64,000 bases of DNA, from the IMG/VR virus record IMGVR_UViG_3300007513_000003. One strand, 5' to 3'. The notes beneath the pieces were generated by a model that was not told the DNA's origin, ran no database searches, and saw nothing but the letters and a program-made list of their open reading frames with translations. This document shows positions 5,728 through 36,918 of this stretch, in pieces. Within the stretch, counting starts at the first letter, position 1, and each line of letters starts with the position of its first letter. The stretch is from a virus (Duplodnaviria > Caudoviricetes). The position numbers and the translations under genes are program-made.

Positions 5728-7269
5728 GTGGCATATACAGTTAATAAAACAGACGGTTCAGTCTTAACTACGGTTGCAGACTCAACGCTGGATACAACAA
5801 CCGACCTGACGCTTATTGGTAAGAATTATGCTGGATATGGCGAGATTCAAAATGAAAATTTTGTCTTTATGCTAGAAAATTTTGCAAATACTTCAGCACC
5901 AAGTTCACCGGTGGCGGGTCAACTTTGGTGGGACACTGCCAATACGTTATTGAATGTTTACACTGGATCAAATTGGAAAGGTGCAGGTGGAATAACAATT
6001 AGGGCATCAGCACCATCCGGTCCTTCAGAAGGTGAATTGTGGTTTGATACAGTAAATGATCAACTATTTGCATACGACGGTGGTTCATGGATTCTTGTTG
6101 GTCCATTGTATGCAGGTGGTGTTAAAACGGGACCCGTTATAGAAACAATTACTGATACATTGGCAGTTGATCATACTGTAATTACAATGTATGTAGGAAA
6201 TTCAAGAGTTTCTATTATATCTAAAGATACGTCCTTTACACCAAACGTTGCTATTTCTGGTTTTGCAACAGTTGAACCAGGATACAATTTAAGTACAACA
6301 GTAGCAGGTGCTAAATGGCACGGAACCGCAACAAACTCAGATAAATTAGGAAGTGTTGCGGCCGCTAGCTACATGCGTTCAGATACTAATGAATCTACAT
6401 CAGGATCAATTAGTATTTTAAATGACAATGGTATAGTAGTTGGTGTTGATTCTGATTTTAGCGCAACAGTAGCAGGTGATGATGTATCACTTAAGAACAA
6501 TACAAGTAATGGTAATGTATACATTAATGTTAATCAAGGCGGTACTCCAACAAACGCTATTACTGTTGATGGTTCAACAACCGCTGTAACAATCGCGGGC
6601 GATTTATCAGTTGGTGGAACTACTACAACAATTAATACTAACAACTTGTTGGTAGAAGATCCGTTAATTGTTCTTTCTAAGAACGTAACAGGCGCGGGCC
6701 CGCATCCGGACGCAGGCTTAATAGTAGAAAGAGGATCTACTTCAAATGTTGGATTTATTTGGGATCGATCAGGTACTGAATGGGCGGCTGTCGTTACAGC
6801 AGAAACAGGTAGTACATCAGGTGATGTAACAATTGATAGTTATGCCAATATTCATTGTGGAACCTTAACCGGTCTAGCAACATCAGCACAATACGCTGAC
6901 TTGGCAGAAAAGTTTGTAGCAGACTATGACTACGATGCAGGTACTGTTGTTCAAATTGGTGGCGAATGTGAAGTTACAATGTGTGAAACAAGCGCATCTG
7001 AAGATGTATTGGGCGTTGTAAGTTCATATCCGGCGTACTTGATGAATAGTGATCAAGAAGATGGTGTTCAAATAGCATTAGCAGGCAGAGTTGCAGTTAA
7101 AATTACTGGTTCTATTGCAAAAGGTGACAGGATTGTGGCCGCTGGCAACGGAACTGCTAGAAAGGCAACAAGAAAAGAAATGACTGCATTTAACGTTATT
7201 GGAAGGGCCCTTGAAAGCAATTCTGATGAAGATGAAAAGTTAGTTCTTTGTATTGTTCGAGCAGTCTAA
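5728..7269 (+). CDS. tail fibre protein with C-terminal intramolecular-chaperone (peptidase G2-like) domain
   Basis: GTG start with GGAG RBS; N-terminal ENF/GQLWWD/GELWFD fibre motifs; C-terminal ADLAEKF...GVVS..PAYLMN...IALAGRV.VK...GD.IV...IGRALE. Confidence 0.75.
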   Translation: MAYTVNKTDGSVLTTVADSTLDTTTDLTLIGKNYAGYGEIQNENFVFMLENFANTSAPSSPVAGQLWWDTANTLLNVYTGSNWKGAGGITIRASAPSGPSEGELWFDTVNDQLFAYDGGSWILVGPLYAGGVKTGPVIETITDTLAVDHTVITMYVGNSRVSIISKDTSFTPNVAISGFATVEPGYNLSTTVAGAKWHGTATNSDKLGSVAAASYMRSDTNESTSGSISILNDNGIVVGVDSDFSATVAGDDVSLKNNTSNGNVYINVNQGGTPTNAITVDGSTTAVTIAGDLSVGGTTTTINTNNLLVEDPLIVLSKNVTGAGPHPDAGLIVERGSTSNVGFIWDRSGTEWAAVVTAETGSTSGDVTIDSYANIHCGTLTGLATSAQYADLAEKFVADYDYDAGTVVQIGGECEVTMCETSASEDVLGVVSSYPAYLMNSDQEDGVQIALAGRVAVKITGSIAKGDRIVAAGNGTARKATRKEMTAFNVIGRALESNSDEDEKLVLCIVRAV

Positions 7270-7280
7270 GTTACAAACGA

Positions 7281-7288
7281 TATAAATA
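7281..7288 (+). promoter_or_regulatory. T4-type late promoter TATAAATA
   Basis: Exact match upstream of 7395. Confidence 0.7.
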
Positions 7289-7306
7289 AGTATATATATA
7301 ACTATA

Positions 7307-7340: not shown

Positions 7341-7394
7341 GTGAGTTAAAACTCGAGTTTAAAAACGAAAAATCCTTAAGGAGAATTAAAAAAG

Positions 7395-8306
7395 ATGGCA
7401 TATTCAACCGGTGATACAATTCTCGCTACACACTATAATGGCTTTGTGACTAGTGTTAACACCATCTGGGGAACAGGCGGTGGTGACGATGGTTATGGTC
7501 AAAGTAATGTAATTTCAACCGTAAGCGCATCTGACACAGTAACAGCAACCCAGTGGGCAACGTTGTTAGCAAGAATTTCTTCAGCCGCGTCCCATCAAGG
7601 CAGTTCAATTACCGCTATTTCAACACCAAGTGCAGGTGATACAATTAGCGCATACGCCGCTCTATCAACAAACATTGGCACAATTGATACAAGCAAGTTA
7701 AACATTACTTCACCTAACTATGATGATACTACTAGCACTGGTAGTGGATCAGCTAGCTGGACAACAAGTACTGTTGACGAGTTTACATTAACATGGTCAA
7801 GTGGCGACGAAGCAAGATATTATTATAATGCAGGTGGTAGCACCCGTCTTACGTTTAGTAGATCAGGCGGTACATCACATACAAAAAATACAGAATGGGC
7901 AAACTTGGCAACTGCATGTGGCACAGTTATTTTTGCCGCACAAGGCACAACCAAGTCAGGCGGATCTGGTACAGTAGATACAGAAGCAACAACAATTGGT
8001 TATCATGACATGTCAACAAGCAACCAGTTAATATTTAGACAGTATGAAGGCGATAGTCCTTACACATCTAACTATATTTCTGTACAGGCAAAGTCAAATG
8101 GTACACAAGGTTCAAACAGCGACAAAGGTAGTGTTTTAACATTTACTATTACTTGGGCTGACGCGGCCGCAGATGACTTTGATGATACAGTAGACGGTAC
8201 AGTAACTAATACTGTTACACATAGAACACCAAACACAACTCAATTAAACAATGCGAGTTGGACTGGCGCGCCTACGTATGCTAGTTCAAGTTTCGCACAA
8301 TCATAA
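7395..8306 (+). CDS. Ser/Thr-rich virion structural protein (short fibre/collar-like)
   Basis: AAGGAG RBS, late promoter, MAYxxGDxIxAxxYN start typical of phage fibre proteins, S/T/G-rich. Confidence 0.65.
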   Translation: MAYSTGDTILATHYNGFVTSVNTIWGTGGGDDGYGQSNVISTVSASDTVTATQWATLLARISSAASHQGSSITAISTPSAGDTISAYAALSTNIGTIDTSKLNITSPNYDDTTSTGSGSASWTTSTVDEFTLTWSSGDEARYYYNAGGSTRLTFSRSGGTSHTKNTEWANLATACGTVIFAAQGTTKSGGSGTVDTEATTIGYHDMSTSNQLIFRQYEGDSPYTSNYISVQAKSNGTQGSNSDKGSVLTFTITWADAAADDFDDTVDGTVTNTVTHRTPNTTQLNNASWTGAPTYASSSFAQS

Positions 8307-8320
8307 CTTGACAATTTAAA

Positions 8321-8349
8321 TTGACAATTAAAAGCATTTAATATATAAT
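8321..8349 (+). promoter_or_regulatory. sigma70-type promoter for the modification cluster
   Basis: TTGACA (8321-8326), 17 bp, TATATA; a second TTGACA at 8308-8313. Confidence 0.5.
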
Positions 8350-8356
8350 AATGTAT

Positions 8357-8707
8357 ATGAGTGCAAAAGAAGTAGTAAAGAAAAAGTTTAACCAAAAGGT
8401 GGCTCATGCAACAAAGCGTGAGACCACCCTAGGTTTACTTTCCCTTCCTTATAACGGTGGCTTATTTAAAGTAACACAGGAGTTAATAAGTTTTGGTGAA
8501 TTAATGTCTTTAAGACACCAAATAGCCACACAAAATGACTTAGATGCAAATCCAACAGTAGTTTTAGATTCATTTGAAAACCCAATTTTAATTGAGGATC
8601 CAGTAGATTTTACACAGAAGTTATGGCAACGGTATTACGAAGTAACAAACGAATACTATGCCGAACTAGAAAAAATTCGACAAATTAGAAAACCAGACCA
8701 AATTTAA
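8357..8707 (+). CDS. hypothetical protein
   Basis: ORF (alternative ATG 8351), stop overlaps the next start. Confidence 0.6.
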   Translation: MSAKEVVKKKFNQKVAHATKRETTLGLLSLPYNGGLFKVTQELISFGELMSLRHQIATQNDLDANPTVVLDSFENPILIEDPVDFTQKLWQRYYEVTNEYYAELEKIRQIRKPDQI

Positions 8708-9549
8708 TGCCAGATGAAAAAGGCGTATTATTATTTGCGTATGATAACGAATCAATAAGTTACACAAATCTCGCCATTATTTGTGCTTTATTAGTACGCA
8801 AACACTTACCAGGAACAGGAATAGCGTTAGTTACTAACAATCCTGTCGATGGCCCCTTCGATCATATTATACACGTTGACGCTGGGAACAGCGGAAGAAG
8901 AACATTTAGAGGCCCGGAGGGAGAACTCGAAGAACTTACATGGCACAATAAAACTAGACCCTTAGCATACGATATTTCTCCATTCCACAAAACTTTATTA
9001 TTAGATGTAGATTATCTTATGTTTAATAATTCGTTGCAAGGGATATTTCAAACACAAGAAGAACTAATATGTCATAAAGATGTGTTTGATATAACAGAAA
9101 ATCATAGTTTTATTGATGATAAGTTATTGCATTGGAGTAGCATACCGATGCTGTGGGCAACTGTATTATATTTTACTAAAGGAGAAACTGCTAAAGCATT
9201 TTTCGATTTAATGAAAATGATACAAGAAAATTATATGTATTATTATAATCTATATAATTTCAAGAAAGGCCCATACAGAAACGACTATGCTATAAGTATT
9301 GCATATAACCTTCTAAGCTTAGAAGGTTACTTCGACAACTCCCTCCTTACCTTACCTTCTCAATATATTGTTAGTGATGTTAGAGAAGATGGTACGGTAG
9401 TGTATGAGTTTGATAATTGTTTATCAACAATAACAAATGCTAATTTACACATTATGAACAAGCACAGTATATTAGAAAATGCAAATAATATTATACGATA
9501 CGCAACACAACCTACTTTAATCCACACAGCACATGAAGCGAATCAATGA
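8707..9549 (+). CDS. GT-A fold glycosyltransferase-like protein (paralogue 1)
   Basis: SPFxKTLLLDVD DxD motif, W.T.LYF.K, RND/YAxSIA motifs; similar to the next gene. Confidence 0.6.
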   Translation: MPDEKGVLLFAYDNESISYTNLAIICALLVRKHLPGTGIALVTNNPVDGPFDHIIHVDAGNSGRRTFRGPEGELEELTWHNKTRPLAYDISPFHKTLLLDVDYLMFNNSLQGIFQTQEELICHKDVFDITENHSFIDDKLLHWSSIPMLWATVLYFTKGETAKAFFDLMKMIQENYMYYYNLYNFKKGPYRNDYAISIAYNLLSLEGYFDNSLLTLPSQYIVSDVREDGTVVYEFDNCLSTITNANLHIMNKHSILENANNIIRYATQPTLIHTAHEANQ

Positions 9550-10396
9550 TCACAGTGAGCAAATAGGTTACTTTACATTTGTTCAAAACAATGAAACAAC
9601 AGACTATTTAAAACTTGCGTATGCGTGTGGTTTAAGTTTAAAGGCAACACAAAGCATAAACAAGTTTGCTATAGCAGTAGACGAAGCAACTAAAGAATGT
9701 TTGGAAGACAAACATTATAAAGTATTTGATTATGTTATAGATATACCGTGGGGAGATGATAGCGAAGAAGATAGTTGGAAGTTAGGCAACGAATGGAAGG
9801 CGTGGGCAATAACACCATTTAAAGAAACAGTTAAATTAGACTGTGATATGGTGTTTACCAGAAACGTTGACCATTGGTGGACATTTATGCGAGAGCAAGA
9901 AATACTAATTGCGACGAATGTACGTAAATTAAATGGACACATTGCCACATCACGCAAATATAGAAGTGTATTTGATGAAAATAATTTACCAAACGTATAT
10001 AGTGGGTTTATGTATTTTCGTTACGGTGAGGAAAGTTTAAAACTGTTTAAAACACTCAAATGGGTTTACAAAAACTGGAATACAGTAACAGAGAATATTA
10101 AAAACTGTAGAGATAATAAACCCACAACAGATGTTGCGTTAGCTATTGCGTTAGTATTGCAAGAGCAAGAATATACATATACAAATAAAATTATAGATTA
10201 CCCAACATTTGTACATTTAAAACCAAGCATTCTAGAATGGCCAGAGCAACACAAAATAGAGGATGTTGTTAATATAAGTTATAGTGATGATGTGGGATTA
10301 CTTATTGGTGTTGAGCCACAGTTATACCCAGTACATGGTGCTGATTGTAAAGAATACTTGGCTGATAAAACAATAGAGTACTATGAAAGGACTTAA
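9533..10396 (+). CDS. GT-A fold glycosyltransferase-like protein (paralogue 2)
   Basis: TPFKETVKLDCD DxD motif, YSGFMYF, TTDVALAIA. Confidence 0.6.
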   Translation: MKRINDHSEQIGYFTFVQNNETTDYLKLAYACGLSLKATQSINKFAIAVDEATKECLEDKHYKVFDYVIDIPWGDDSEEDSWKLGNEWKAWAITPFKETVKLDCDMVFTRNVDHWWTFMREQEILIATNVRKLNGHIATSRKYRSVFDENNLPNVYSGFMYFRYGEESLKLFKTLKWVYKNWNTVTENIKNCRDNKPTTDVALAIALVLQEQEYTYTNKIIDYPTFVHLKPSILEWPEQHKIEDVVNISYSDDVGLLIGVEPQLYPVHGADCKEYLADKTIEYYERT

Positions 10397-10772
10397 TGAG
10401 TTTTTAGAAGCATTAGAAGGCTTTAACTATAGTGAAAAGGAAAAGCCAGATTATTGTTTATATTATGATGACTCAGGCAGAATATACGAAGCATCAACAG
10501 AAGAACGAGAAGGATTAAGTTATATAAAAGTTCCATGGAACTGGCCAAACGATAACTTTATTACAGATTGGACTGTTGAAGATGGTAAGTTAAAGCCTAT
10601 AGAAAAATATAATAGCGCAATATCAAAATATAAACAAATAACACATGCTTCAGAGTTAGACCATACTCGTCCTGTATTAGTTACTAATAAAGATCATAGG
10701 TTAATTAAACGTGTTATTAATCCAGACCAAGTCAAATTTATTAAAGATGAAAGTTATTACCAATTACAATAG
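10383..10772 (+). CDS. hypothetical protein
   Basis: 129-aa ORF overlapping the previous stop. Confidence 0.6.
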   Translation: MKGLNEFLEALEGFNYSEKEKPDYCLYYDDSGRIYEASTEEREGLSYIKVPWNWPNDNFITDWTVEDGKLKPIEKYNSAISKYKQITHASELDHTRPVLVTNKDHRLIKRVINPDQVKFIKDESYYQLQ

Positions 10773-10780
10773 GAGGAAAA

Positions 10781-11008
10781 ATGGTGACATCACATGCAAA
10801 GTTTCCGTGGAAAGTTGAAAAGGGAGACGTAATTAAAAATCAAGAGTTTAAAGAGGCAGTTAAAATATATAAAAGTGTAAAAGTATGGTGTGAATCAAAC
10901 TGTAAGGGTGAATATAAAGTCGACGACCGAGTTTATGCCCACGGCGTAAGGGTAGATTTTAAACGCCCAACAGAAGCATCATTATTTGAAGAACACTTTA
11001 ACTCATGA
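10781..11008 (+). CDS. hypothetical protein
   Basis: AGGAGG RBS; ATGA overlap with the next gene. Confidence 0.65.
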   Translation: MVTSHAKFPWKVEKGDVIKNQEFKEAVKIYKSVKVWCESNCKGEYKVDDRVYAHGVRVDFKRPTEASLFEEHFNS

Positions 11009-11931
11009 CTGAAATCATCGACATTGCGGACTTAGACTGCATATATCTAACATACGATGAACCACAAAAGGATGAGTTTTGGGCAAAGATACTTAATATG
11101 GTTCCGTGGGCAAAACACGTTGACGGTGTTTATGGTTCTGATGCGGCACATAAAGCGGCGGCAGAAGCAAGTGACACAGAACGGTTTGTTTTGATTGACG
11201 GAGACAATATGCCTGACCCGGAGTTCTTTAACCTTCAAATTACATTAGATAACGATACAAAAGATTGCGTTTTTAGATGGAAGGGACGTAATGTTATAAA
11301 CGGACTAATGTACGGCAATGGTGGTTTAAGTTGTTGGCCAGTTGAGTTTGTAATGAACATGAAATCACATGAAAACACTGATGGCAGAGATGAAACATTG
11401 GTTGAATTTTGTTTTGATGACAAATATAGAGCAATGCATAACTGCTACAGTACAACATATCCAAATGGATCCGAACTTCATGCGTGGAGGGCAGGCTTTA
11501 GAGAAGGCGTCAAGATGGTGCTGGATAAAGGATCCCGCCCCAGTCTCGATACATTTGAGAAACAAATACATGCTCGTAATTACGATAATCTATGTATTTG
11601 GCAAACAGTAGGACGCGATGTTGAACACGGCATTTGGGCAATATATGGAGCACGTTTAGGCACGTTTTTAACCATGCTTGCAGATTGGGATTATATAAAT
11701 GTAAGAGACTTTAAGTATCTTACAGAATTGTTTAATGCGGAACACGCAGACAAAGATCCAGAAGCAGAAGCAAGAAGGTTGGGCGAAATACTACAAAACA
11801 AATTAGGTATGCCTATATGCGAAATGGATGCTGAATCAAGTAAGTTTTTTAAAGAGCACTATAGCACACACAAAAACTATGATATCATGATCCAGGAGTT
11901 AGATGTAATACGCCAAATTGAAGGCTGGTAA
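11005..11931 (+). CDS. glycosyltransferase family 2-like protein
   Basis: IYLTYDEP...HKAAA..S.TERFVLIDGDN (DxD) GT-A pattern. Confidence 0.6.
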   Translation: MTEIIDIADLDCIYLTYDEPQKDEFWAKILNMVPWAKHVDGVYGSDAAHKAAAEASDTERFVLIDGDNMPDPEFFNLQITLDNDTKDCVFRWKGRNVINGLMYGNGGLSCWPVEFVMNMKSHENTDGRDETLVEFCFDDKYRAMHNCYSTTYPNGSELHAWRAGFREGVKMVLDKGSRPSLDTFEKQIHARNYDNLCIWQTVGRDVEHGIWAIYGARLGTFLTMLADWDYINVRDFKYLTELFNAEHADKDPEAEARRLGEILQNKLGMPICEMDAESSKFFKEHYSTHKNYDIMIQELDVIRQIEGW

Positions 11932-13373
11932 TGGAACTATACAAGGACAATAAGGGCGATAAAGTAGAAGTTGAAGATGGGAAATTTAAATCGGACTTTT
12001 ACAAAAGCGCAGAAAATATTACAGAGCAATTAGACTCTGTATCACCGTCCTTTTGCCTTGCTAAATGGAATCAAGTTAGTTTACATTTACCAACTGGATT
12101 AAACAACAGTTGCTACCACCCACCACTACACAAAATAGACGCAGAAGAAGTTAAACAAAATCCATCTGCTTTACATAATACGCAACACAAGAAACAAATG
12201 CGTAAGTTAATGCTAGAAGGAGAACGTCCAAAAGAATGCCAGTATTGTTGGAACATTGAAGATACTGGGCATATGAGCGACAGGCATTATAGAAGTGGCG
12301 AGCCATGGGCACACATGGACTTTGAAACTATACTTAATGCTCCGTGGAATGCAGACAAAAACCCACGCTATGTTGAAGTTAACTTTAATCATAATTGCAA
12401 TCTAAAGTGTAGTTACTGTTCACCACAGTTTAGCACATCGTGGGAAAAGGAAATGAAGCAGTATGGTGCATGGCCCACAAAAACACCACATAACGCACCT
12501 GAACATTTTACTGGCGACAGAGCATGTATTCCACATAGTCATTATAATCCACATGTAGAAGCATTTTGGAAATGGTGGCCCGACTTATATAAAGATTTAA
12601 AACACTTTAGAATGACTGGCGGCGAACCAATGATGGATAAAAATACTTACAAAGTATTTGATTACATTAATGAGCATCCAAAAAGCGATTTACATCTTAA
12701 CGTAACGAGTAACTTCTCAGTAGAGGATAAACTGTTTAACAAATATATTGAAGCAATTAAACCTATTTGCTTAGATGAAAAAGTAGAACACTTTATGCAA
12801 TATGTTAGCGTTGACACGTGGATGGAGCAAGCGGAATATATACGCAATGGATTAGATTTTAATAGAATGTGGGACAACGTTAATAGATTTTTAACAGAAG
12901 TTCCATATAGAAACAGCGTTACGTTTATTATTACATATAATAATTTAAGTGTAACAGGCATGGATAAACTGTTAGCCGCTATACATGGTTTAAGACAAAT
13001 ATATAGCGAGACTTACCAACGAGTGTGGTTTGATACTCCACTGTTGAGACAACCACGTTGGCAAAGCATACAATTATTGCCCGAAGCATACCAAATGATA
13101 CATGACGACAACATTTGTTGGATGTTGGATAATATGGAAGACGAAAAAACACGCTTTAAGGGATTTAAAGATTATGAAGTTCAACGTATGCAACGTGACT
13201 TGGCGTGGTGGCAAGAAGGTAGTAATTTAGACGAGCACTATGTAAAAGACTGTAAAGCAGATTTTTATAGGTTTTTTAACGAACACGATAAACGCCGAGG
13301 AACAAACTTCCTCGAAACTTTCCCCGAAATGATAGATTGGTGGGAAGAATGTAAGAGGTTGGCGCAATCGTGA
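11931..13373 (+). CDS. radical SAM protein with N-terminal SPASM/twitch domain
   Basis: CNLKCSYC; FRMTGGEP; N-terminal FCLAKW..SC..P...CQYCW. Confidence 0.9.
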   Translation: MELYKDNKGDKVEVEDGKFKSDFYKSAENITEQLDSVSPSFCLAKWNQVSLHLPTGLNNSCYHPPLHKIDAEEVKQNPSALHNTQHKKQMRKLMLEGERPKECQYCWNIEDTGHMSDRHYRSGEPWAHMDFETILNAPWNADKNPRYVEVNFNHNCNLKCSYCSPQFSTSWEKEMKQYGAWPTKTPHNAPEHFTGDRACIPHSHYNPHVEAFWKWWPDLYKDLKHFRMTGGEPMMDKNTYKVFDYINEHPKSDLHLNVTSNFSVEDKLFNKYIEAIKPICLDEKVEHFMQYVSVDTWMEQAEYIRNGLDFNRMWDNVNRFLTEVPYRNSVTFIITYNNLSVTGMDKLLAAIHGLRQIYSETYQRVWFDTPLLRQPRWQSIQLLPEAYQMIHDDNICWMLDNMEDEKTRFKGFKDYEVQRMQRDLAWWQEGSNLDEHYVKDCKADFYRFFNEHDKRRGTNFLETFPEMIDWWEECKRLAQS

Positions 13374-22606: not shown

Positions 22607-22607
22607 A

Positions 22608-26750: not shown

Positions 26751-27373
26751 TATTCACAAACGGTGATAGTTTTACGTTTGGGGATGAGTTAGAACATCCG
26801 TTTTCTGAATGTTGGCCAGCCAAGTTGGGTGAAATAACTAGACTTCAAGTAGTTAATTTTGCACGTTCCGGTGCCGCAAATAATCGTATAGTAGAAACTA
26901 CCAAAAACTTTTTTAACGATTTGGCCAGACTATCTGTTTTTAATACTGGTAAAAGGAAATCATTGAATTCAGTAACTGAAATAGAATGTGCTGTAATACA
27001 ATGGACTTCGTATATTCGATTGGGGCCAAACGAAACTATACCAAAGAATATTGTGTTAGGAGAGAATGAAAAAAATTATCTATTAGATAATTTTTTTGTA
27101 CAAATAAGAGAATTACAGGATTTTTTCGAGTCTAGACGTATACCTTATTTGATGCTTAATGCTTTTGATAATGAAAAAGTAATACCACAATGTAATTCTG
27201 AGTTTAAAGACCTAGTTGACGATAAGTATTTTATAGGGTGGCCAAACCAAGCAATAGTTAATTGGGTGTATGGTATGGATCACGGTCCTAAAGGCCATCC
27301 AGGAAAATTGGCACATGCTGAAATAGCAGAGATTATCTATGAAAATATTAGGAATAAGTTGCGGGTTTCATGA
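26726..27373 (+). CDS. SGNH/GDSL hydrolase-like protein
   Basis: NGDSFTFGDEL, N.A.SGAAN, GHPG..AH; ATG 26726 preferred over TTG 26714. Confidence 0.75.
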   Translation: MDISQEKIIFTNGDSFTFGDELEHPFSECWPAKLGEITRLQVVNFARSGAANNRIVETTKNFFNDLARLSVFNTGKRKSLNSVTEIECAVIQWTSYIRLGPNETIPKNIVLGENEKNYLLDNFFVQIRELQDFFESRRIPYLMLNAFDNEKVIPQCNSEFKDLVDDKYFIGWPNQAIVNWVYGMDHGPKGHPGKLAHAEIAEIIYENIRNKLRVS

Positions 27374-29010: not shown

Positions 29011-29583
29011 ATGGATAAAAATACAATAGTAATATATGGCGCAAAAAGGAGTGGTAATCATTATTTGCAAAGTTATTTTAAAAACCAAGGGCATGAGTGC
29101 GAATTTAGACATGAAGCAGATTACGCTAAAAAATTATATGATGAAAAAGGAAAACATCTAATAGTTTTAGTGCGTAATCCTAGAGACCAAATTATATCTA
29201 ACTCTTATAGTATGTTTAATGCTGATAAAGATGGGTATAGCGTGGGCACAAAAAATCGACCATTAACAGATTTATCTCCGCAAGAAATACCATATCAAGT
29301 TGTTGGTTCAGCATGCCAATACCTTAAAGATTTTACAGATACCATGGTACCGCTTATAGCAACTCGCCCATACCAGTTCATATTATATGATACCATAGCA
29401 CAGAAAAATTTAAACAGTATATACACAAAACGCGATCTAGAATATTATAAAAAAGCAATCTTAAATTATGATGGTATTTTAGATGTGCTTAATAGAAGCG
29501 ACATAGAAGAATATTGTTTAAAAATATGGCGAGCGTTTAATCTTCAACAAACAGTTTTTTATCCTGAATTAGCAAATGTATGA
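29011..29583 (+). CDS. sulfotransferase-like (P-loop) protein
   Basis: IYGAKRSGNHYL 5'-PSB-like motif and LVRNPRD 3'-PB-like motif. Confidence 0.6.
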   Translation: MDKNTIVIYGAKRSGNHYLQSYFKNQGHECEFRHEADYAKKLYDEKGKHLIVLVRNPRDQIISNSYSMFNADKDGYSVGTKNRPLTDLSPQEIPYQVVGSACQYLKDFTDTMVPLIATRPYQFILYDTIAQKNLNSIYTKRDLEYYKKAILNYDGILDVLNRSDIEEYCLKIWRAFNLQQTVFYPELANV

Positions 29584-29588: not shown

Positions 29589-29596
29589 TATAAATA
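29589..29596 (+). promoter_or_regulatory. T4-type late promoter TATAAATA
   Basis: Exact match in an AT-rich intergenic gap. Confidence 0.55.
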
Positions 29597-29713
29597 TAAT
29601 TAATACTATAAAAATTTCTATAAAATTAATATAAACAAGTTCAATCAAATAATATTTTCAATTAATTAATAATTAAATTCGATCAAATAGTTTTTCGATT
29701 AGGAAAACATTTG

Positions 29714-30640
29714 ATGAACAGGATTGAACTAGTTAGCCAAGGGCGTTCTTTGGCAGTTATTGAGTTTCGGAATCATCCATTTGTTAACAAATGGTTCGAA
29801 CATTGGAAATATATAAACTCTAATTTCCAAGCATATACGCTAAATTATCTATATCCAACAAATTCGTGGAAGCCAGCACCGTCTATAGACATAGTTAAAA
29901 AATCAATTGATTCTATTAGAGACGCGGGGTTATACCTAAACTCTATTACAAATACACATATATTCCCATATGATTCAGATAATTTTCCAAGTTATGATAT
30001 TTTCTTAGAAAATGGATTAGAAGCACAGCAATATTTAAACACATTCCATAGGCATTTTACTAATGGTATTCGCGAACCTCATGGAAGAGATTTATTAAAA
30101 AATGGAATGATTAAAAAAGAAGAGGATACATCCAATTGGATTAACAGAATACAAGAAATCAACCAAGCAGTTCATGACTTAGATAGTTATACAAGAACTC
30201 CCCATTTGCAAAGTATTCCTATTTTAGATTATTTCAGTATACAGTATCATTTATATAATGAAAACATGTATCTGTCAGAAAGTGTTCATTGTCCTATTAC
30301 ACCCGAAGAATGTTTAAGTGCGGCAGATGATAGTAATAATTGGAATGTGTGGCTAAAAGTAGATTTACTAGGCAAAGATTACATAACAGGATTTATAAAT
30401 CATGATAATCCTACTGAATGGGATATACAATATTTAAATAATTATACTGGTATGTTTGTACTTTATCCTAACAAAACGCCAGTAGATTTTTGCAAAAACA
30501 AAATATTTTACAAATGGTTGCAACAATATAACTTAGAATATGATCCTAGAATGTGTGGCATTCCGCTTGGTAAAATAAACTATATTGTAGATGATTATCA
30601 TAATTATCATAATTCAGATTTATTGATTCAAGAATTGTAG
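29714..30640 (+). CDS. hypothetical protein (paralogue of 23368..24474)
   Basis: AGGA RBS; shared motifs with the 368-aa ORF. Confidence 0.65.
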   Translation: MNRIELVSQGRSLAVIEFRNHPFVNKWFEHWKYINSNFQAYTLNYLYPTNSWKPAPSIDIVKKSIDSIRDAGLYLNSITNTHIFPYDSDNFPSYDIFLENGLEAQQYLNTFHRHFTNGIREPHGRDLLKNGMIKKEEDTSNWINRIQEINQAVHDLDSYTRTPHLQSIPILDYFSIQYHLYNENMYLSESVHCPITPEECLSAADDSNNWNVWLKVDLLGKDYITGFINHDNPTEWDIQYLNNYTGMFVLYPNKTPVDFCKNKIFYKWLQQYNLEYDPRMCGIPLGKINYIVDDYHNYHNSDLLIQEL

Positions 30641-30688: not shown

Positions 30689-33600
30689 ATGTATGACATA
30701 ATAAGCAGGGATGACATCGATGACATTCACGAGGCGGCCGCCAAATGCAAAACGAGATATTTTTGGTACGTTGATCATGGTGTTGATTGTACTGGGTTTG
30801 ATTTCAATTGGGTTCCTGTACCATGGGAATCCGAGTTTGTACATATCTTCCCAAGCAAATGGCAACGTGACGGCGGAATAAGATTAGTCAATAAGCAACA
30901 TCCCGAAGAACAAATAAAATTACATAATAGTAATGTTGTTCCACGAGAATCTACGAAAAGAAATTGGATTCTCAATGACGATACTGATTACAGTAACTTC
31001 GACTTCAGTTGGCATCCTGACAATTTGGATGACGATTTTACATACGTCTTTCCTTCGCAGTGGCAAAGAGATGGTGGCACGTACTATGTTACAGAGCCTG
31101 GCGCGCCTAAGAAGTATGTTAGTGATCAGGTAACAAAACGCACAAACTGTTTGGATAACTGGAAACTACCGAATGTAGACACAACTGAGTTCGACTTTAG
31201 TTGGCACCCCGATCCTGCTGAAAAACCTTACACGTATGTTTTCGCTTCGCAATGGCAACGTGATAGTGGAACACACTATATTACAGAACCCGGCGCACCG
31301 CGTAAGTACGCTAATGACCAAACAACAATAAGAGATGTTCCTGTTAGTTCCGATACTAGTGTTGTGTCTGCAGATAATATTAAACATACTAGCGATATTA
31401 AACACGGTTGGAAACTACATGAAGATACAGACTACAGTAACTTTGACTTTAGTTGGCATCCTGATCCATCACACGGAGATTTTACTTATGTGTTTCCTTC
31501 ACAATGGCAAAGAGATGGCGGTACATACTATGTTACAAGTCCTAATGCACCGCGTAAGTATGTTAGTGATCAGGTAACAAAAAGAATACCAAATAAAGAT
31601 AATTGGAGTCTCAACAAATATACTGACTATACTAATTTCGATTTTAGCTGGCATCCTGACCCATCATATGGTAACTACACGTATGTTTTCCCTTCGCAAT
31701 GGCAACGTGATGGCGGCACATATTATGTAACTGCCCTCGATTCGCCTAAAAAGTATATTAGCGACCAAGTAACAAAACGTACCAACTGTCTAGATAATTG
31801 GGAATTGCCAGACAATATAGACACAAGTGAGTTTGACTTTAGTTGGCATCCTGATCCCTCGCACGGCGACTACACATATGTATTTCCTTCATTATGGCAA
31901 CGTAATAGCAATGTTTGTTATACTACAAAAGAAGGTGCACCAAAGAAATACGTAAGCGACCAGGTTATTAGACCACTACCTAAAAAAGAAGATTGGATTA
32001 TTCCTAGTAATATAGACGAAGATAGTTTTGATTTTAGTTGGATGCCTGATCCAGATGATCCCCCATACATATATGTTTTTGGTACACAATGGCAGGAAGA
32101 TGGTGGACCTATATATGAAGTAGAAGGTGCGACTAAAATAAATTATATTGATGAACCAAGAGCAAAAGCATTGCCCACTACAGAACATTGGCATACAGAT
32201 AGTGAAACAGACTATAGCACATTTGATTTTAGCTGGCATCCAGAAGAGTCACAAAAAGACTTTAAACATGTGTTTGGATCACAATGGCAAAAGACTAGTA
32301 AGACGTTTTACTACAATGGCAATAATTCTAATCCAAAAATAAACTATGTAACAGACCAACGTGTAACAAGTAAAAGCGACACATTGCCTCGTTATAATAT
32401 TGAAACAACACTAGAGGATTTAATAAACGATCATCCTACTGAACGCTTTTGGGCGTTGAATTCAGAAATGGATTATGAAGAGTTTGACTTTAGTTGGCAC
32501 CCAGACGCAAGCCAAATGGATTATGTTCACGTGTTTGGGTCTCAATGGCAAAAGCATAGCCAAACATTCTACGTAAATGCTCCTGCCTACTTAAAAGGCA
32601 ATACCCACTTAAATTTTGTGGGAGATCAGAAGGTAGTAGCGAATAGCACCCTGGATATCTTCTATATCGACAAGGGAGGAGAAAATAGCGCAGAACGCTT
32701 TAAATCACTGCTTCTAAGACACCCACAGATGGTCAAGACACGGTTCTTTGGGAATATACGTGATACACTACTACGGTGTGCTAAAAAATCCAATACAGGG
32801 CGATTCTGGGCGATTTCGAGCGAGAACAATTATGACAGTTTTAACTTTGATTGGCATTGCGAACCATGGCAAAATGGAATGCTACATGTATTTGGCAGTA
32901 AGTGGAACAAGTGGAGTAACACGTTTTTAGTAAATGCTGATGATTTTATTCGCACCTTTGACTGGGCAGAAAATATTGAAGATGTTTATAATTTAAATTT
33001 TGTAGAAGATCAACAGGTACAATTGTACGACGACAATAGAGAAATATGGTATGTTGATTTTGGTAACAACGTAGATTTTGCGCCATTACTAGAATATAAT
33101 AAAGCAAGATTCTTTGGTAATTGGTTAGAAACATTAACACGTATTGTAGAAAGAACAGACGAAGATTATATATGGGTATGCGGGAGTATATGTGATTATT
33201 CATTATTTGACTTCGGCTGGGAACCTGAGCCATGGCAACAAGACATGCTTCATGTATTTCCTAGTAATAAGCAACTTGAAGGCGACACTTTTTATGTACC
33301 TGTTAAAAAGTTTAAAGAACAATCTAGTAATTTAAAAGTATTGGGTTGGTTTGATACAGTTAACTATGTTAAAGATATTAATGTTTCGCGTTGTAGTTGG
33401 CCTATAGTTAATAATATACATGAACTAGATACATTATATGGATGGATTTTACACAACAATCAAAAGACTATAGATTATGATCCTCCTTTCTGGAAAACGC
33501 CAGAACTTCACGTTTTTAACAGGAGTGGTAGCGTGTCCTTAGTACCCCGTGACTGTAAAAGGGAATTTCGAACACAATTATATGACTACCCGCATATATT

Positions 33601-34363
33601 GCGCCATTCGGGGTTCAAATGCGAAGATAAACCACTAGATATTGTGTTTATTTCCAATGGAGAAAAAAACGCCAATAAAAATTGGGATCACTTAGTAGAA
33701 GTATATAAGAATAACAACTGTACAAATACACTATTAAGAAGTAGCGGCGTGAATGGTAGAACACAGGCATATCAAGCGGCCGCGAATCTTAGCAGAACAG
33801 AATGGTTTTATGCTGTATTTGCAAAAACAGAAGTGATGCCAGATTTTAAATTTGACCTAGTTCCTAATTATTTAGAAGAAACAAAACATTATATGTTACA
33901 CAGTCGTAATCCTCTTAACGGATTAGAATATGGTGCTATGAATATTAACATGTATAATAGACAGTTAACTTTAGATACTAAGCCCGGATTAGACTTTACT
34001 TTAAGTAGCAATCACGACACTATTCCTATTGTTGCTAGTATTAGTAGATTCAATGAAGATCCATGGGTAACTTGGAGAAGTGCATTTAGAGAAGTATTAA
34101 AACTTAAACGTGAAGTAGATTTAGGTGATCCTAGACCAGAAATTGCATATAGACTTAAAGTATGGTGTACTATTGCAGAAGGGCAGAACGCGGAATGGTG
34201 CTTGGCAGGAGCAAATGATGCATTAGAGTATTACGAACAAGAAAATGGTGATTATAACGCATTGTTAAACAGTTATGATTGGCCATGGTTAAAAGCCTTT
34301 TTCGAAGAACGTTATTCTAATATTAGCAACCCATTACCTCTTGATACCGAGGAAGAGTTTTAA
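30689..34363 (+). CDS. 1224-aa repeat protein with C-terminal GT2-like domain
   Basis: 11 FDFxWxP...VFxxxWQ repeats; C-terminal DIVFISNGE...AYQAAA..S.TEWF similar to 11005 gene. Confidence 0.75.
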   Translation: MYDIISRDDIDDIHEAAAKCKTRYFWYVDHGVDCTGFDFNWVPVPWESEFVHIFPSKWQRDGGIRLVNKQHPEEQIKLHNSNVVPRESTKRNWILNDDTDYSNFDFSWHPDNLDDDFTYVFPSQWQRDGGTYYVTEPGAPKKYVSDQVTKRTNCLDNWKLPNVDTTEFDFSWHPDPAEKPYTYVFASQWQRDSGTHYITEPGAPRKYANDQTTIRDVPVSSDTSVVSADNIKHTSDIKHGWKLHEDTDYSNFDFSWHPDPSHGDFTYVFPSQWQRDGGTYYVTSPNAPRKYVSDQVTKRIPNKDNWSLNKYTDYTNFDFSWHPDPSYGNYTYVFPSQWQRDGGTYYVTALDSPKKYISDQVTKRTNCLDNWELPDNIDTSEFDFSWHPDPSHGDYTYVFPSLWQRNSNVCYTTKEGAPKKYVSDQVIRPLPKKEDWIIPSNIDEDSFDFSWMPDPDDPPYIYVFGTQWQEDGGPIYEVEGATKINYIDEPRAKALPTTEHWHTDSETDYSTFDFSWHPEESQKDFKHVFGSQWQKTSKTFYYNGNNSNPKINYVTDQRVTSKSDTLPRYNIETTLEDLINDHPTERFWALNSEMDYEEFDFSWHPDASQMDYVHVFGSQWQKHSQTFYVNAPAYLKGNTHLNFVGDQKVVANSTLDIFYIDKGGENSAERFKSLLLRHPQMVKTRFFGNIRDTLLRCAKKSNTGRFWAISSENNYDSFNFDWHCEPWQNGMLHVFGSKWNKWSNTFLVNADDFIRTFDWAENIEDVYNLNFVEDQQVQLYDDNREIWYVDFGNNVDFAPLLEYNKARFFGNWLETLTRIVERTDEDYIWVCGSICDYSLFDFGWEPEPWQQDMLHVFPSNKQLEGDTFYVPVKKFKEQSSNLKVLGWFDTVNYVKDINVSRCSWPIVNNIHELDTLYGWILHNNQKTIDYDPPFWKTPELHVFNRSGSVSLVPRDCKREFRTQLYDYPHILRHSGFKCEDKPLDIVFISNGEKNANKNWDHLVEVYKNNNCTNTLLRSSGVNGRTQAYQAAANLSRTEWFYAVFAKTEVMPDFKFDLVPNYLEETKHYMLHSRNPLNGLEYGAMNINMYNRQLTLDTKPGLDFTLSSNHDTIPIVASISRFNEDPWVTWRSAFREVLKLKREVDLGDPRPEIAYRLKVWCTIAEGQNAEWCLAGANDALEYYEQENGDYNALLNSYDWPWLKAFFEERYSNISNPLPLDTEEEF
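30990..32320 (+). repeat. intragenic ~195-bp (65-aa) tandem repeats
   Basis: Repeated TT(C/T)GA(C/T)TT(C/T)AG(C/T)TGG...CAATGGCAA blocks; protein FDFSWHPDP..YTYVFPSQWQRDGG. Confidence 0.85.
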
Positions 34364-35318
34364 CAAATGGTTGTTCTAAAAACCAATTTAAATAAGTAGG
34401 AATTCCTATCTCAATATCCATTGTAGGATTCCAGTCTGTATATTCTTTTAGTTTGTTGCTGTTTAATGTGTCTCTATTAGGATAAAAACTGTCATGTGGC
34501 AATATTTCCATATCTCCACCTAATCTTTCTTGTACCCGCATGGCTGCTTCTAAAATAGTTTTTCCATTACCACGGGTGCAATTAAAAATTTCGTTAGTGG
34601 TGTTTTCATTTATAGCACAGACAGCAAATGCACTAGCGACATCTTCTACCCAACTAAAATCTAATTTATTTTCTGCGCCGTGGACATGTATTTTTCCTGT
34701 AGTTAACGCAGATTCTGCCATTTTACTAATTACTCTAACTATCATATCTCTTGTGCCATACAAAGCACTAGGTCGAAGTATAGCATAGTTTAATCTTTTT
34801 TCTCTATGCCATATTTCGCACATACGTTCGCCTTGTAGTTTATAACTCCCGTACAATGTTTTAGGATCTGTCTTGCTTGTTTCATCTGGCGCTTCACTTT
34901 CAAAATTACCATAAACCATACTACTGCTAGAAAACACAATCTTTTCTACGTTATATTCTGTACATAAATCTAGTGTTGTTGCTGTTGCTGTAATCATATT
35001 GTTGGTAGCATCAACAACATTGCGTTTTACCATGTAAGCGTTTGGATATGTTGCTAGATGTATTACTATATTTGGTTTAAAAGTAGAAAAAACACCGGAC
35101 ATAAACTCTGTATCTTCTATTTTTCCTTGAAACATATGATCAGCACAAGCAAGTTCTTGTCGTTGTTGCAATATACAAAAGTATTCATCGTCTGGAAAAA
35201 TATAATACTGGTGGTAACAGTCTACTACCGCTATTTCGTGACCTTGTTTACGTAGTATGTCGCTAGTATGCGATCCAATAAAACCGTGGCCACCTAATAT
35301 TAAAATTCTTTTAGACAT
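34323..35318 (-). CDS. NAD-dependent epimerase/dehydratase
   Basis: GGHGFIG, SSSMVYG, YGSYK catalytic motif, DFSWVED. Confidence 0.9.
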   Translation of the reverse strand: MSKRILILGGHGFIGSHTSDILRKQGHEIAVVDCYHQYYIFPDDEYFCILQQRQELACADHMFQGKIEDTEFMSGVFSTFKPNIVIHLATYPNAYMVKRNVVDATNNMITATATTLDLCTEYNVEKIVFSSSSMVYGNFESEAPDETSKTDPKTLYGSYKLQGERMCEIWHREKRLNYAILRPSALYGTRDMIVRVISKMAESALTTGKIHVHGAENKLDFSWVEDVASAFAVCAINENTTNEIFNCTRGNGKTILEAAMRVQERLGGDMEILPHDSFYPNRDTLNSNKLKEYTDWNPTMDIEIGIPTYLNWFLEQPFVKTLPRYQEVMGC

Positions 35319-36358
35319 TGTATAACTCTTTCTATTTCATTATTTGTCATATAAGGACAATTGGGTATTGTTAGACTAGTTTGTTGTAAACTTAAACTAT
35401 TATTATATTCTTTTATATTAATATTGAACAGTTTTTCTTGTATAGGTAAAATACTATAATGTATTTGTGTTAATATACCATTAGATTTAAGATGTTTTAT
35501 TAATTTATCTCTGCTTTCGCACTTAATTACAAATTTACTATAGGTACAATCTTCTTTATATACAGGAAGTTCATACTTGTTGCCTATTTCTGTGGTATAT
35601 AGTTTAGCAATATATCGTCTTTTATTTTTATGTTCTGTTAATAAATCTAACGTGTTATTTAATACCACAGATTCTGTGGTACTAATCATGCTATTCATTC
35701 CTAAAACTTCACTAGGAGTAGAATTGTTTATTTTTCCGTGTAATCTTCCTAGAGTTGCTAACTTAGCAAAGTTATCGCTATTAGTAACTAATGCGCCGCC
35801 GCTTCCTAATGTAGTACAGGGCTTGGTAGGACTAAAACTTAGCACACTAAACGCAGAATTACTTAATGGTGCTCCTAGACTTTGCGCCGCGTCTTCGACT
35901 AGTAATAAGTTATTATCATTACAAAACGTTTCAACTAGTTTATTTGCGGGGCTTCCCCATAATGTAACATATAATAATACCTTTGTGTTGTTAGTGATTT
36001 TTTCTTTTGCTTTAGTTAAATCTAGATGATAATCATCCCCAACATCTACAAACACGGGTTTTAGTCCCGCAAGTAAAATGCTAGATGCTGTTGCAATAAA
36101 CGTATAAGCAGGAACAATTACTTCGCTATTGCTAGGTAAATTTAGATTGCGTAAACCTTGTACAAGGGCGTCTGTACAACTATGGAACAATGTTGTATTT
36201 TTTGTATTAATTAAAAAAGATATTTTATTTTCGACTTGTTTAGTTATATCTCCACCCTGACATACTCCGGTAGACAAAACTGAATCTATATCTTGCTTAA
36301 CATTAGACCCTATTTCATTCCAAAGTCTATCAAGATTAAATACTTTTACATCGTCCAT
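35300..36358 (-). CDS. DegT/DnrJ/EryC1/StrS PLP-dependent sugar aminotransferase
   Basis: SCTDAL, TFIATA, EDAAQS.G, SFSPTK (Schiff-base Lys), G.GGA. Confidence 0.92.
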   Translation of the reverse strand: MDDVKVFNLDRLWNEIGSNVKQDIDSVLSTGVCQGGDITKQVENKISFLINTKNTTLFHSCTDALVQGLRNLNLPSNSEVIVPAYTFIATASSILLAGLKPVFVDVGDDYHLDLTKAKEKITNNTKVLLYVTLWGSPANKLVETFCNDNNLLLVEDAAQSLGAPLSNSAFSVLSFSPTKPCTTLGSGGALVTNSDNFAKLATLGRLHGKINNSTPSEVLGMNSMISTTESVVLNNTLDLLTEHKNKRRYIAKLYTTEIGNKYELPVYKEDCTYSKFVIKCESRDKLIKHLKSNGILTQIHYSILPIQEKLFNINIKEYNNSLSLQQTSLTIPNCPYMTNNEIERVIQCLKEF

Positions 36359-36918
36359 TTAACTAGTTCAAAACTCTCCGCATAAGGATTTTTCGTAGAT
36401 GTCCCCCGTAATATAGCAAGAGCACGAGTTTGTTCTAATAATTCATCACTTACATCAATAAATGATGAGCACCAATCTAACTTATCTTGTATAGTATTCA
36501 TTCCAAAAAACACATTTGGATTAAATGATTTATTATTGTTTACATAAGCAGTAACTTCATATTGCAATATAATGCCAGAAAATTTTCTACTACTTGCTAA
36601 TGCTAGTTGATTTACAGTTTGATGGTCTTGATGGCTGTCGCCGTAATGAGGTATTAACAAATAATCGTAATTATTATTGTATAATATATCGTCTAGTCTA
36701 GAAATACTATCACTACTAAAGAAGGGTCTTTGGACATCGTCAAAAAATTCATATTCATATTTTAAATTAAAAGAATTAATGTCAACCGATTCTTCTTTTT
36801 CCTTATAAAAATAAACAATTTTAACAAAACTATTATTGCTAAGTTCGCTTAACAAAAATCCGCCGGCTCCTAACTCTACATCATCTGGGTGCGGACTAAG
36901 AGCTAAGATAGTTTTCAT
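36346..36918 (-). CDS. PIG-L/LmbE family deacetylase
   Basis: LALSPHPDDVELGAGG and DSHQDH motifs; ATGA overlap with the thyX stop. Confidence 0.88.
   Translation of the reverse strand: MKTILALSPHPDDVELGAGGFLLSELSNNSFVKIVYFYKEKEESVDINSFNLKYEYEFFDDVQRPFFSSDSISRLDDILYNNNYDYLLIPHYGDSHQDHQTVNQLALASSRKFSGIILQYEVTAYVNNNKSFNPNVFFGMNTIQDKLDWCSSFIDVSDELLEQTRALAILRGTSTKNPYAESFELVKWTM

Follow-up and report, generated by a model that had tools for sequence, protein, structure and literature searches.

A conserved radical SAM and glycosyltransferase gene block behind the tail-fiber genes of an uncultured marine giant phage

The window analyzed here, a 64,000-nucleotide stretch of IMG/VR virus record IMGVR_UViG_3300007513_000003, belongs to an uncultured marine giant phage and carries, directly behind tail-fiber genes, a conserved ~29-kb set of enzyme genes. 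Its core comprises two GT8-like glycosyltransferase (GT) genes, one GT2-like gene, the radical S-adenosylmethionine (SAM) genes A-B-C/D-E-F, a gene for a 368-residue protein and a gene for a repeat protein whose GT domain is dead; hundreds of aquatic jumbo-phage contigs share this core in fixed form. The genes very probably form one sugar-building and tailoring system, whose product is probably a heavily edited glycan. A preliminary description of the window had proposed that they act together on a decorated sugar structure, and this proposal is supported by the fixed collinear core in the lineage and by the presence of the same enzyme families in Bacteroidota chromosomes. We tentatively favor a reading in which the block, part of the core genome of an aquatic jumbo-phage lineage, encodes cytoplasmic enzymes that build and tailor a glycan with which phage proteins are decorated. 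It is gene order, and only gene order, that points to the virion as the target.

The window lies within a 111.8-kb IMG/VR viral contig whose CheckV completeness of ~31% implies a jumbo phage. A gp47-type exonuclease shares 51% identity with its counterpart in Pseudomonas phage PA5oct and ~47% with the counterparts in Rak2-like phages. No isolate sharing DNA with the window emerged when the phage collection was searched for near-identical DNA, and the DNA runs that contain the stretch are seawater, marine and estuary metagenomes. Conservation was counted in 80 phage loci centered on radical SAM genes, with neighbors scored within 10 kb of these genes; a second set comprises 59 loci centered on homologs of a 303-residue protein. 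Within the first set, the GT2-like gene occurs in 77 loci, GT8-like genes in 68, the 368-residue gene in 65, a carbamoyltransferase in 60, the 303-residue gene in 57 and the 1224-residue repeat protein in 44. Extra radical SAM genes, a flavoprotein, a cupin-like protein and a 309-residue protein are accessory in this window. Contigs of relatives (90-97%) from four marine RNA libraries span the GT8, GT2-like, radical SAM A-F and flavoprotein genes, which shows presence in the libraries and is not proof of transcription; parts of the stretch that such contigs do not reach (for example 19-21 kb and 23.7-25 kb) carry no information. Three contigs filed under Legionellales and Haliscomenobacter metagenome-assembled genomes (L014, L016 and L017) contain the whole phage module, including fiber, 303-residue, GT, radical SAM, peptide and carbamoyltransferase genes, and are probably mis-binned jumbo-phage contigs. 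We found no description of this enzyme combination in phages in the literature; the 'moraphage' paper describes aquatic jumbo phages with four core GT orthogroups and glutamine synthetases, and no radical SAM enzymes (PMC12619734).

Family models identify nine radical SAM genes in the block, a class already noticed in the preliminary description, all on the plus strand:
11931-13373, plus strand: N_Twi radical SAM protein, paralog A (NF033640, 328 bits)
13370-14389, plus strand: canonical radical SAM protein with a C-terminal SPASM domain, accessory (in 13 of 80 loci)
14390-15757, plus strand: N_Twi radical SAM protein, paralog B (NF033640; 51% identity to gp202 of phage RsoM2USA)
15750-17063, plus strand: N_Twi radical SAM protein, paralog C (NF033640; its twitch domain aligns to that of BtrN)
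17053-18306, plus strand: N_Twi radical SAM protein, paralog D (NF033640; 45% identity to C)
18303-19649, plus strand: N_Twi radical SAM protein, paralog E (NF033640)
19631-20767, plus strand: radical SAM protein with an N-terminal SPASM-like domain, outside N_Twi, accessory (family models)
20769-22082, plus strand: N_Twi radical SAM protein, paralog F (NF033640)
25450-26520, plus strand: radical SAM protein with an N-terminal SPASM-like domain, accessory (family models)

Six of the nine belong to NCBIfam NF033640 (N_Twi_rSAM), scoring 289.8-406.5 bits against a curated cut-off of 170 bits; the 378- and 356-residue radical SAM proteins, at 65 and 45 bits, are not members. In the N_Twi architecture an N-terminal four-cysteine twitch domain precedes the CxxxCxxC core, and C46, C65, C106, C109 and C159/C163/C166 are invariant in eight paralogs. 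When the N_Twi profile is compared with PDB sequences, its sole match is the twitch domain of BtrN, with the four cysteines aligned (E 1.4e-3). The substrate of BtrN is an aminocyclitol, a sugar-type molecule. The paralog order A-B-(C/D)-E-F is kept in the 80 phage loci, and the number of N_Twi paralogs per locus ranges from three to seven, with five or six in 71 of the 80. This constancy of order and copy number indicates old orthologous sets rather than a recent expansion. Members of NF033640 above the cut-off are absent from 14 control genomes, and N_Twi matches number more than 6,900 proteins in the public collection and at least 589 stretches in IMG/VR. Some relatives have further genes directly beside the array: a glutamine synthetase in one (L009, 18163-19233), and a ferredoxin-reductase-like gene with an Fe-S assembly protein in another (L011, 15695-18188), the latter pair being possible reductant- and cluster-supply helpers for the radical SAM enzymes. 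Four distant N_Twi-like radical SAM genes (20-26% identity) also lie near a PagP-like gene in Vibrio phage K566 (L171, 161.5-168.3 kb), in a cluster without carbamoyltransferase, peptide or GT-like genes.

The radical SAM array is embedded among GT-like genes and two further long reading frames:
8707-9549, plus strand: GT8-like (glycogenin-like) GT-A glycosyltransferase, 280 residues (family profile; no Pfam match)
9533-10396, plus strand: GT8-like paralog, 287 residues (family profile)
10383-11008, plus strand: two small open reading frames (ORFs) of 129 and 75 residues, poorly conserved
11005-11931, plus strand: GT2-like GT-A enzyme, 308 residues, with a helical C-terminal half (model and invariant DxD)
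23368-24474, plus strand: 368-residue core protein, modeled as a cyclophilin-like barrel with a helical insert (predicted structure)
29711-30640, plus strand: 309-residue protein with no assignment
30689-34363, plus strand: 1224-residue protein with 11 Trp-rich repeats of ~65 residues and a C-terminal GT2-like domain that has lost the DxD

The three GT-A-like genes of the preliminary description hold up as two GT8-like enzymes and one GT2-like enzyme. The 280- and 287-residue proteins are paralogs (E 5e-12), and their family profile matches glycogenin-1 (E 4.6e-6, positions 9-108) with one Asp of the DxD invariant; none of 31 family members matches the Pfam GT8 model, and one matches Nucleotid_trans (E 0.005). 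For the 308-residue protein, the AlphaFold2 model (predicted local distance difference test score 87) comprises a GT-A domain and a helical half, and D65 and D67 of its DxD are invariant in 25 sequences. The best fold match of this model is B4GALNT1 (VIA Z 9.3, root-mean-square deviation (rmsd) 3.1, 139 residues aligned), many GT2 chains follow at Z 7.5-9, and nucleotidyltransferases score alike. Foldseek places the peptide glycosyltransferase SunS at the top (E 1e-3), with chlorovirus A64R among the matches; the protein has no match in Pfam, including Glycos_transf_2, even at E 5. The modeled fold suggests a sugar-transfer activity. The description of the 1224-residue product as a GT-like repeat protein likewise stands: its C-terminal domain is homologous to the 308-residue GT (E 1e-7) with the DxD replaced, and 18 complete homologs have 2-9 repeat motifs and the DxD in none. 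The model of the 368-residue protein resembles the cyclophilin-like fold to a middling degree (Z 9.1, rmsd 3.6, 144 residues aligned); Foldseek found no match to it in the PDB and only uncharacterized clusters in AFDB. Kinship between the 309- and 368-residue proteins is not supported by BLASTP (E 0.96). Family profiles of the 308- and 368-residue proteins, as of the 303- and 118-residue proteins discussed below, gave no usable match among PDB sequences.

Tailoring enzymes follow the array on the plus strand, and a sugar operon converges on them from the minus strand:
22058-22606, plus strand: CREG/PNPOx-like flavin-binding protein, window-specific (family models)
22608-23384, plus strand: 258-residue protein with an HxD...H motif seen by eye, candidate cupin or 2-oxoglutarate (2OG) oxygenase, window-specific
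24483-25310, plus strand: SGNH/GDSL-like protein (DUF6071), 275 residues (weak match and GDS motif; homologs in RsoM2USA)
25285-25419, plus strand: micro-ORF of 44 residues ending in RDPFIYK, between the first SGNH gene and an accessory radical SAM gene, conserved only over its C-terminal ~29 residues
26714-27373, plus strand: second SGNH-like protein, 219 residues (GDS motif, sub-threshold GDSL)
27339-29006, plus strand: NodU/CmcH/TobZ-type carbamoyltransferase (two Pfam domains; 45% identity to RsoM2USA gp199)
29011-29583, plus strand: sulfotransferase-like protein, 190 residues (weak match; conserved only in close relatives)
34323-35318, minus strand: NAD-dependent sugar epimerase/dehydratase (family models)
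35300-36358, minus strand: DegT/DnrJ/EryC1 sugar aminotransferase (family models)
36346-36927, minus strand: PIG-L/LmbE-type deacetylase (family models)
36915-37861, minus strand: ThyX, first gene of the convergent operon, with a perfect σ70 promoter at 37861-37833

The carbamoyltransferase that the preliminary description had named is secure, with Carbam_trans_N and Carbam_trans_C domains at 136.1 and 178.2 bits against cut-offs of 24 and 27; at 144.7 bits against the cut-off of 1000 for the NodU equivalog NF041651, it belongs to the same superfamily and is not NodU. Three other assignments made there are tentative. Both proposed SGNH proteins have visible GDSFT motifs, and the 275-residue protein just reaches DUF6071 (27.4 bits, cut-off 27), but the pair remains sub-threshold on the GDSL model Lipase_GDSL_2 (16.5 and 12.9 bits, cut-off 32.9). 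For the 190-residue candidate sulfotransferase, the match is confined to a 3'-phosphate-binding-type stretch and is weak (E 0.006-0.012), and the scores of 17.4 and 15.5 bits lie below the Pfam Sulfotransfer cut-offs of 27 and 22. The 258-residue protein does have the HxD motif and distal His expected from its earlier label of 2OG-Fe(II) oxygenase, but 2OG oxygenase family models do not match it and a cupin model (AraC_binding) does so only weakly (E 0.076). Epimerase, DegT and PIG-L genes converging from the other strand were correctly recognized; together with ThyX they form a minus-strand operon whose reading frames overlap. In close relatives, the DegT and epimerase genes that lie between the repeat protein and ThyX are non-orthologous (24-30% identity, compared with 65-84%), so that, judged by sequence, this region appears to behave as a swappable sugar cassette. 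A swapped sugar-nucleotide cassette combined with variable accessory tailoring genes is the pattern expected of exposed glycans.

The DPFIYK micro-ORF, which does not appear in the preliminary description, is annotated in public gene calls as a hypothetical protein of 33-34 residues, and its last 24 residues match a 33-residue ORF in other loci. A strict pattern finds it in 61 of the 80 radical SAM-centered loci, with one-residue variants in four more. Across 64 different DNA versions, Lys/Arg swaps are the only changes at residues 17-33, with all synonymous codons used; over the last 18 codons there are 15,144 synonymous and 3,652 non-synonymous codon differences, a pattern of substitution that bespeaks purifying selection. 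A Shine-Dalgarno-like site precedes it in at least 40 of the 64, and in contig L023 the micro-ORF overlaps the start of the carbamoyltransferase gene. Where the interval from the 368-residue gene to the repeat protein is fully sequenced, peptide and carbamoyltransferase are both present in 23 loci, both absent from nine and never found singly; the nine, which form approximately one clade and thus represent one or two evolutionary events, keep the core. This ties the peptide to the carbamoyltransferase/SGNH cassette, and the GT/radical SAM core can exist without it. In that cassette, the peptide may be a substrate, in the manner of peptides that are ribosomally synthesized and then modified post-translationally (RiPPs), a carrier or a small activating subunit. 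One criterion for RiPPs is a precursor gene among modifying enzymes, and the micro-ORF, with its ribosome-binding site, occupies such a position. The cultured Ralstonia phage RsoM2USA (MG752970.1; L172, 16156-16278) also has an unannotated ORF ending in DPFIYK, between gp201 and gp200. There, the peptide lies between two SGNH genes and is flanked by a B-type N_Twi radical SAM gene (51% identity) and a carbamoyltransferase gene (45% identity).

The genes ahead of the enzyme operon, the promoter-like elements and the first operon gene are as follows:
5728-7269, plus strand: 513-residue tail-fiber-like protein with an intramolecular-chaperone-like C-terminal domain (TATAAATA upstream at 5619 and 5630)
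7395-8306, plus strand: 303-residue protein, 33% Ser plus Thr, found in viruses only and without a family assignment (TATAAATA at 7281)
8321-8349, plus strand: perfect σ70-type promoter, TTGACA-17-TATAAT, at the head of the enzyme operon, directly before its first gene
8351-8707, plus strand: small 118-residue protein, first operon gene, conserved in phage loci
29589-29596, plus strand: TATAAATA box in the gap before the 309- and 1224-residue genes

Identification of the 513-residue gene as a tail fiber is upheld by a weak Peptidase_G2/intramolecular-chaperone match, by tail-fiber PHROGs and by 41% identity of its C terminus to a virion structural protein of PA5oct; its neighbor, the 303-residue protein, is Ser/Thr-rich, as described before. 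ESM Atlas look-ups of the 303- and 368-residue proteins gave unnamed viral clusters or nothing, and a complex prediction for a 303-residue trimer returned 'no answer' (score 0.01), which counts neither way. The expected co-occurrence of the cluster with these fiber genes in relatives is evident in the 59 loci centered on 303-residue homologs, in which GT genes lie downstream in 58, radical SAM genes in 57 and a 513-residue fiber homolog upstream in all 59. The late promoter proposed at 29589 fares less clearly. The TATAAATA box is present and intergenic, but this motif is not enriched in the window (eight found versus 12 expected) and only its placement is notable: four of six plus-strand copies fall in intergenic gaps just upstream of the 513-, 303- and 309-residue genes. 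Among relatives, it occurs upstream of 513-residue fiber homologs in 17 of 78 loci, with a background of 0.03 per kb. Another copy, at 25214 upstream of the micro-ORF, was ruled out as a conserved element, being kept in three of 64. The two perfect σ70 promoters, at 8321-8349 and before ThyX on the minus strand, were absent from the preliminary description; a σ70-like site is found upstream of the 118-residue homolog in eight of 18 loci. With σ70 sites before the enzymes and late-type boxes before the fiber genes, the enzymes look early or middle and the fiber genes late, as far as promoter motifs can tell.

None of the phage cluster proteins has a membrane segment, and the cluster contains no flippase, polymerase, priming transferase, UbiA-like, lipid-carrier, export or ABC component, which argues that the acceptor is soluble. 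Phage proteins are our preferred acceptors on several grounds: the enzymes are soluble, the GT8-like proteins resemble a protein-priming transferase, late-type genes flank the block, the sugar cassette and tailoring genes vary as those for exposed glycans do, and the dead-GT protein varies in repeat number. There are precedents in serine-rich repeat adhesins, which are glycosylated in the cytoplasm by GT8 and GT2 enzymes, and in the virion glycans of mycobacteriophages. We propose a mechanism whose chemistry, acceptor and timing we infer from the observed families, folds, conservation, solubility and promoter motifs. Two host-type σ70 promoters would switch on the enzymes ahead of the late genes, and the convergent ThyX/PIG-L/DegT/epimerase operon would provide an amino-sugar nucleotide. 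Next, two glycogenin-like GT8 enzymes and the GT2-like enzyme would move sugars onto a soluble acceptor, and five orthologous twitch-first radical SAM enzymes (A, B, C/D, E and F) could edit sugar C-H positions by BtrN-type oxidation, epimerization or deoxygenation. The SGNH/peptide/SGNH/carbamoyltransferase cassette would add carbamoyl and handle acyl groups, and three more radical SAM enzymes, the flavoprotein, the cupin-like protein and the sulfotransferase-like protein may contribute extra tailoring in this phage. The acceptors would most likely be the flanking late-type, TATAAATA-box phage proteins, namely the 513-residue fiber, the 303-residue Ser/Thr-rich protein and the 1224-residue repeat protein.

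Related toolboxes occur in bacteria. A Crocinitomicaceae cluster (OZ252050.1; L050, 38439-59743) contains three N_Twi radical SAM genes, a carbamoyltransferase, a sulfotransferase, two GDSL domains, PhyH and WelO5-like oxygenases, along with a UDP-sugar dehydrogenase, an epimerase, a UbiA+GT4+GDSL fusion, an ABC ATPase and a CysN-like gene. A Saprospiraceae contig (L032) has two N_Twi radical SAM genes, UbiA, GT4, an epimerase, eight PhyH genes, a methyltransferase and Wzm/Wzt-like ABC parts. The same enzyme families in independent Bacteroidota clusters indicate that the toolbox recurs in what appear to be clusters for exported glycoconjugates; the DPFIYK peptide is absent from true bacterial N_Twi clusters.

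Several observations weigh against decoration of phage proteins as the function of the block. The literature yielded no characterized member of N_Twi_rSAM, and the fold matches, with Z about 9, are of middling quality. Because collinearity extends over the entire region throughout the lineage, adjacency to the fiber genes is a single, non-independent observation, and the rSAM-B/SGNH/peptide/carbamoyltransferase sub-module of RsoM2USA has no homolog of the fiber genes within 14 kb. Early or middle enzymes and late fiber genes, if that is what the promoters signify, are compatible alike with virion glycosylation, DNA modification and host takeover. By BLAST, only 14-18 of 77 bacterial loci have GT or ABC neighbors, and the neighborhood of a solo N_Twi gene in Reichenbachiella is uninformative. 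Finally, GT8 also includes soluble transferases of the lipopolysaccharide (LPS) core, so a target in the host envelope would also fit the absence of membrane segments. Such host-envelope remodeling, in which the enzymes would act on the LPS core or an envelope precursor at the inner membrane face and use host carriers or exporters to block superinfection or change the surface, would suit early-type σ70 promoters, which fit action on a living host, and the placement of the homologous bacterial toolbox within exported-glycoconjugate clusters. We nevertheless judge it improbable: the phage lacks the UbiA-like, priming-transferase, flippase and ABC parts that the bacterial clusters always have, the module is part of the rigid core in this lineage of lytic-type jumbo phages and no variable moron, and five radical SAM enzymes are a large investment for a short-lived surface change.

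The main rival to phage-protein decoration centers on the peptide. In this RiPP-like or peptide-primed scheme, the micro-ORF product would be the substrate, radical SAM enzymes and carbamoyltransferase would modify its DPFIYK end, in the marine lineage the GTs would add sugars to it, and the pathway would yield either a modified peptide or a small molecule derived from one. The near-invariance and Shine-Dalgarno sites of the micro-ORF, its position beside rSAM-B and the carbamoyltransferase in RsoM2USA, the strict 23/9/0 co-occurrence and the SunS match of the GT2-like model all speak for it. Moreover, HypF, a member of the carbamoyltransferase superfamily, carbamoylates the C terminus of HypE, and glycogenin, a GT8 enzyme, glucosylates a Tyr. 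We still regard this scheme as rather unlikely. Nine phages keep the GTs, radical SAM enzymes A-F, the 368-residue gene and the repeat protein without peptide or carbamoyltransferase, which argues that the peptide is not an obligate acceptor of the core, and the joint absence reflects only one or two evolutionary events. True bacterial N_Twi clusters lack the peptide, no RiPP recognition element (RRE) or leader peptidase family was detected among the small or unassigned cluster proteins, the four-cysteine, single-cluster twitch domain is closest to that of a small-molecule enzyme, BtrN, and the peptide could instead be an activating subunit of the carbamoyltransferase, much as MbtH-type partners are for adenylating enzymes. 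It is similarly doubtful that the block makes a viral natural product or cofactor of a new, peptide-linked class, whose DPFIYK end would be modified by radical SAM enzymes, carbamoylated and, in the marine lineage, glycosylated with radically edited amino sugars. A free metabolite made during infection, a carbamoylated amino sugar of aminoglycoside- or nucleoside-like type, would account for the solubility of every cluster protein, for BtrN being the sole PDB sequence match of the N_Twi profile and for the parallels to BtrN (twitch radical SAM), BtrR/S (DegT), BtrD (PIG-L), BtrM (GT) and TobZ (carbamoyltransferase). Its prospects are slim, as the annotated genes include neither a 2-deoxy-scyllo-inosose synthase or other scaffold-forming enzyme nor genes for export or self-resistance, close relatives have non-orthologs in place of the DegT/PIG-L/epimerase cassette, unlike a fixed pathway, and the repeat/dead-GT protein would have no role. 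Least probable is DNA hypermodification against restriction, with GTs glycosylating modified bases and the other enzymes tailoring the DNA-linked sugar. We know of no precedent for carbamoyl, sulfo or radical SAM tailoring of DNA-bound sugars, and the window already has separate 7-deazaguanine genes of FolE/QueD/QueE type. A hydroxymethylase-type ThyA homolog and TGT/DpdA are also missing from the 111-kb contig, a weak point given that the contig covers ~31% of the genome. Early-type promoters, co-transcription of the sugar genes with ThyX and the need for a soluble acceptor would fit modification of DNA, and phage DNA glycosylation is widespread according to literature cited in PMC12619734.

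There are several broader implications. Glycosylation encoded by phages has precedents, none of them known to involve five or more radical SAM enzymes together with a carbamoyltransferase and a conserved mini-peptide; in this widespread aquatic jumbo-phage lineage, which is uncultured, that combination belongs to the core. For the N_Twi family, whose thousands of members have no known reaction, the module supplies a defined genetic context. The sub-module of the culturable RsoM2USA (rSAM-B, two SGNH genes, peptide and carbamoyltransferase) offers a direct experimental entry point, and the Bacteroidota N_Twi clusters would be a separate target in the search for the reaction that this family performs. 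If the product is on virions, it would bear on host recognition and shielding of abundant marine phages; a peptide-derived molecule would amount to a novel type of viral natural product, and, should such a peptide-linked class exist, twitch-first radical SAM enzymes would perform several reactions not yet known in enzymology.

Two minus-strand regions elsewhere in the window have distinct contents. Positions 57325-63652 carry a QueE-like radical SAM gene, QueD/PTPS, a phosphoribosyltransferase, GTP cyclohydrolase I, a weak GT-B (GT1-type) match and a mannose-6-phosphate-isomerase/cupin gene, which together probably form a 7-deazaguanine set that has sugar genes of its own. Positions 41549-46265 form a GC-rich island (0.46, compared with about 0.35) with genes for a 711-residue FG-GAP repeat protein, an HNH endonuclease-like protein (phrog_1314) and an ATPase (phrog_1297), and this composition suggests recent acquisition.

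The block has parallels in several known systems. The phage N_Twi enzymes share the N-terminal four-cysteine twitch domain and CxxxCxxC core of the NF033640 family at large, and here constitute a fixed set of five orthologous paralogs in a phage GT module. BtrN is the 2-deoxy-scyllo-inosamine dehydrogenase of butirosin synthesis, and the aminoglycoside toolkit of BtrN, BtrR/S, BtrD, BtrM and TobZ shares with the phage block the four aligned twitch cysteines and the DegT, PIG-L, GT and carbamoyltransferase families. In BtrN, however, the twitch domain is C-terminal, whereas that of the phage proteins is N-terminal; the match is weak (E 1.4e-3), and the phage has no cyclitol-forming enzyme. Mycofactocin (a C-terminal Val-Tyr peptide, a radical SAM/SPASM enzyme and a GT2 enzyme) and the glycocins have in common with the block a small peptide with a Tyr near its C terminus among radical SAM and GT2-like genes. 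By contrast, the phage radical SAM proteins score 25-40 bits on the MftC model against a cut-off of 265, neither an RRE nor a peptidase was detected, and the core persists without the peptide in one clade. The Bacteroidota clusters, themselves uncharacterized, share N_Twi radical SAM enzymes, a carbamoyltransferase (32% identity), sulfotransferase, GDSL proteins, 2OG/PhyH oxygenases and an epimerase, but have their own UbiA-like, GT4 and ABC parts and lack the DPFIYK peptide, the GT8-like genes and the repeat protein. Virus-encoded virion glycosylation, as in the capsid and tail-tube O-glycans of mycobacteriophages, chlorovirus A64R and the fibrils of mimivirus, resembles the block in its soluble GTs beside structural genes and its amino-sugar pathway; those systems operate without radical SAM enzymes, a carbamoyltransferase or a conserved mini-peptide. 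The block could be a variant of such virus-encoded glycosylation and tailoring, and something new if the peptide proves to be a substrate.

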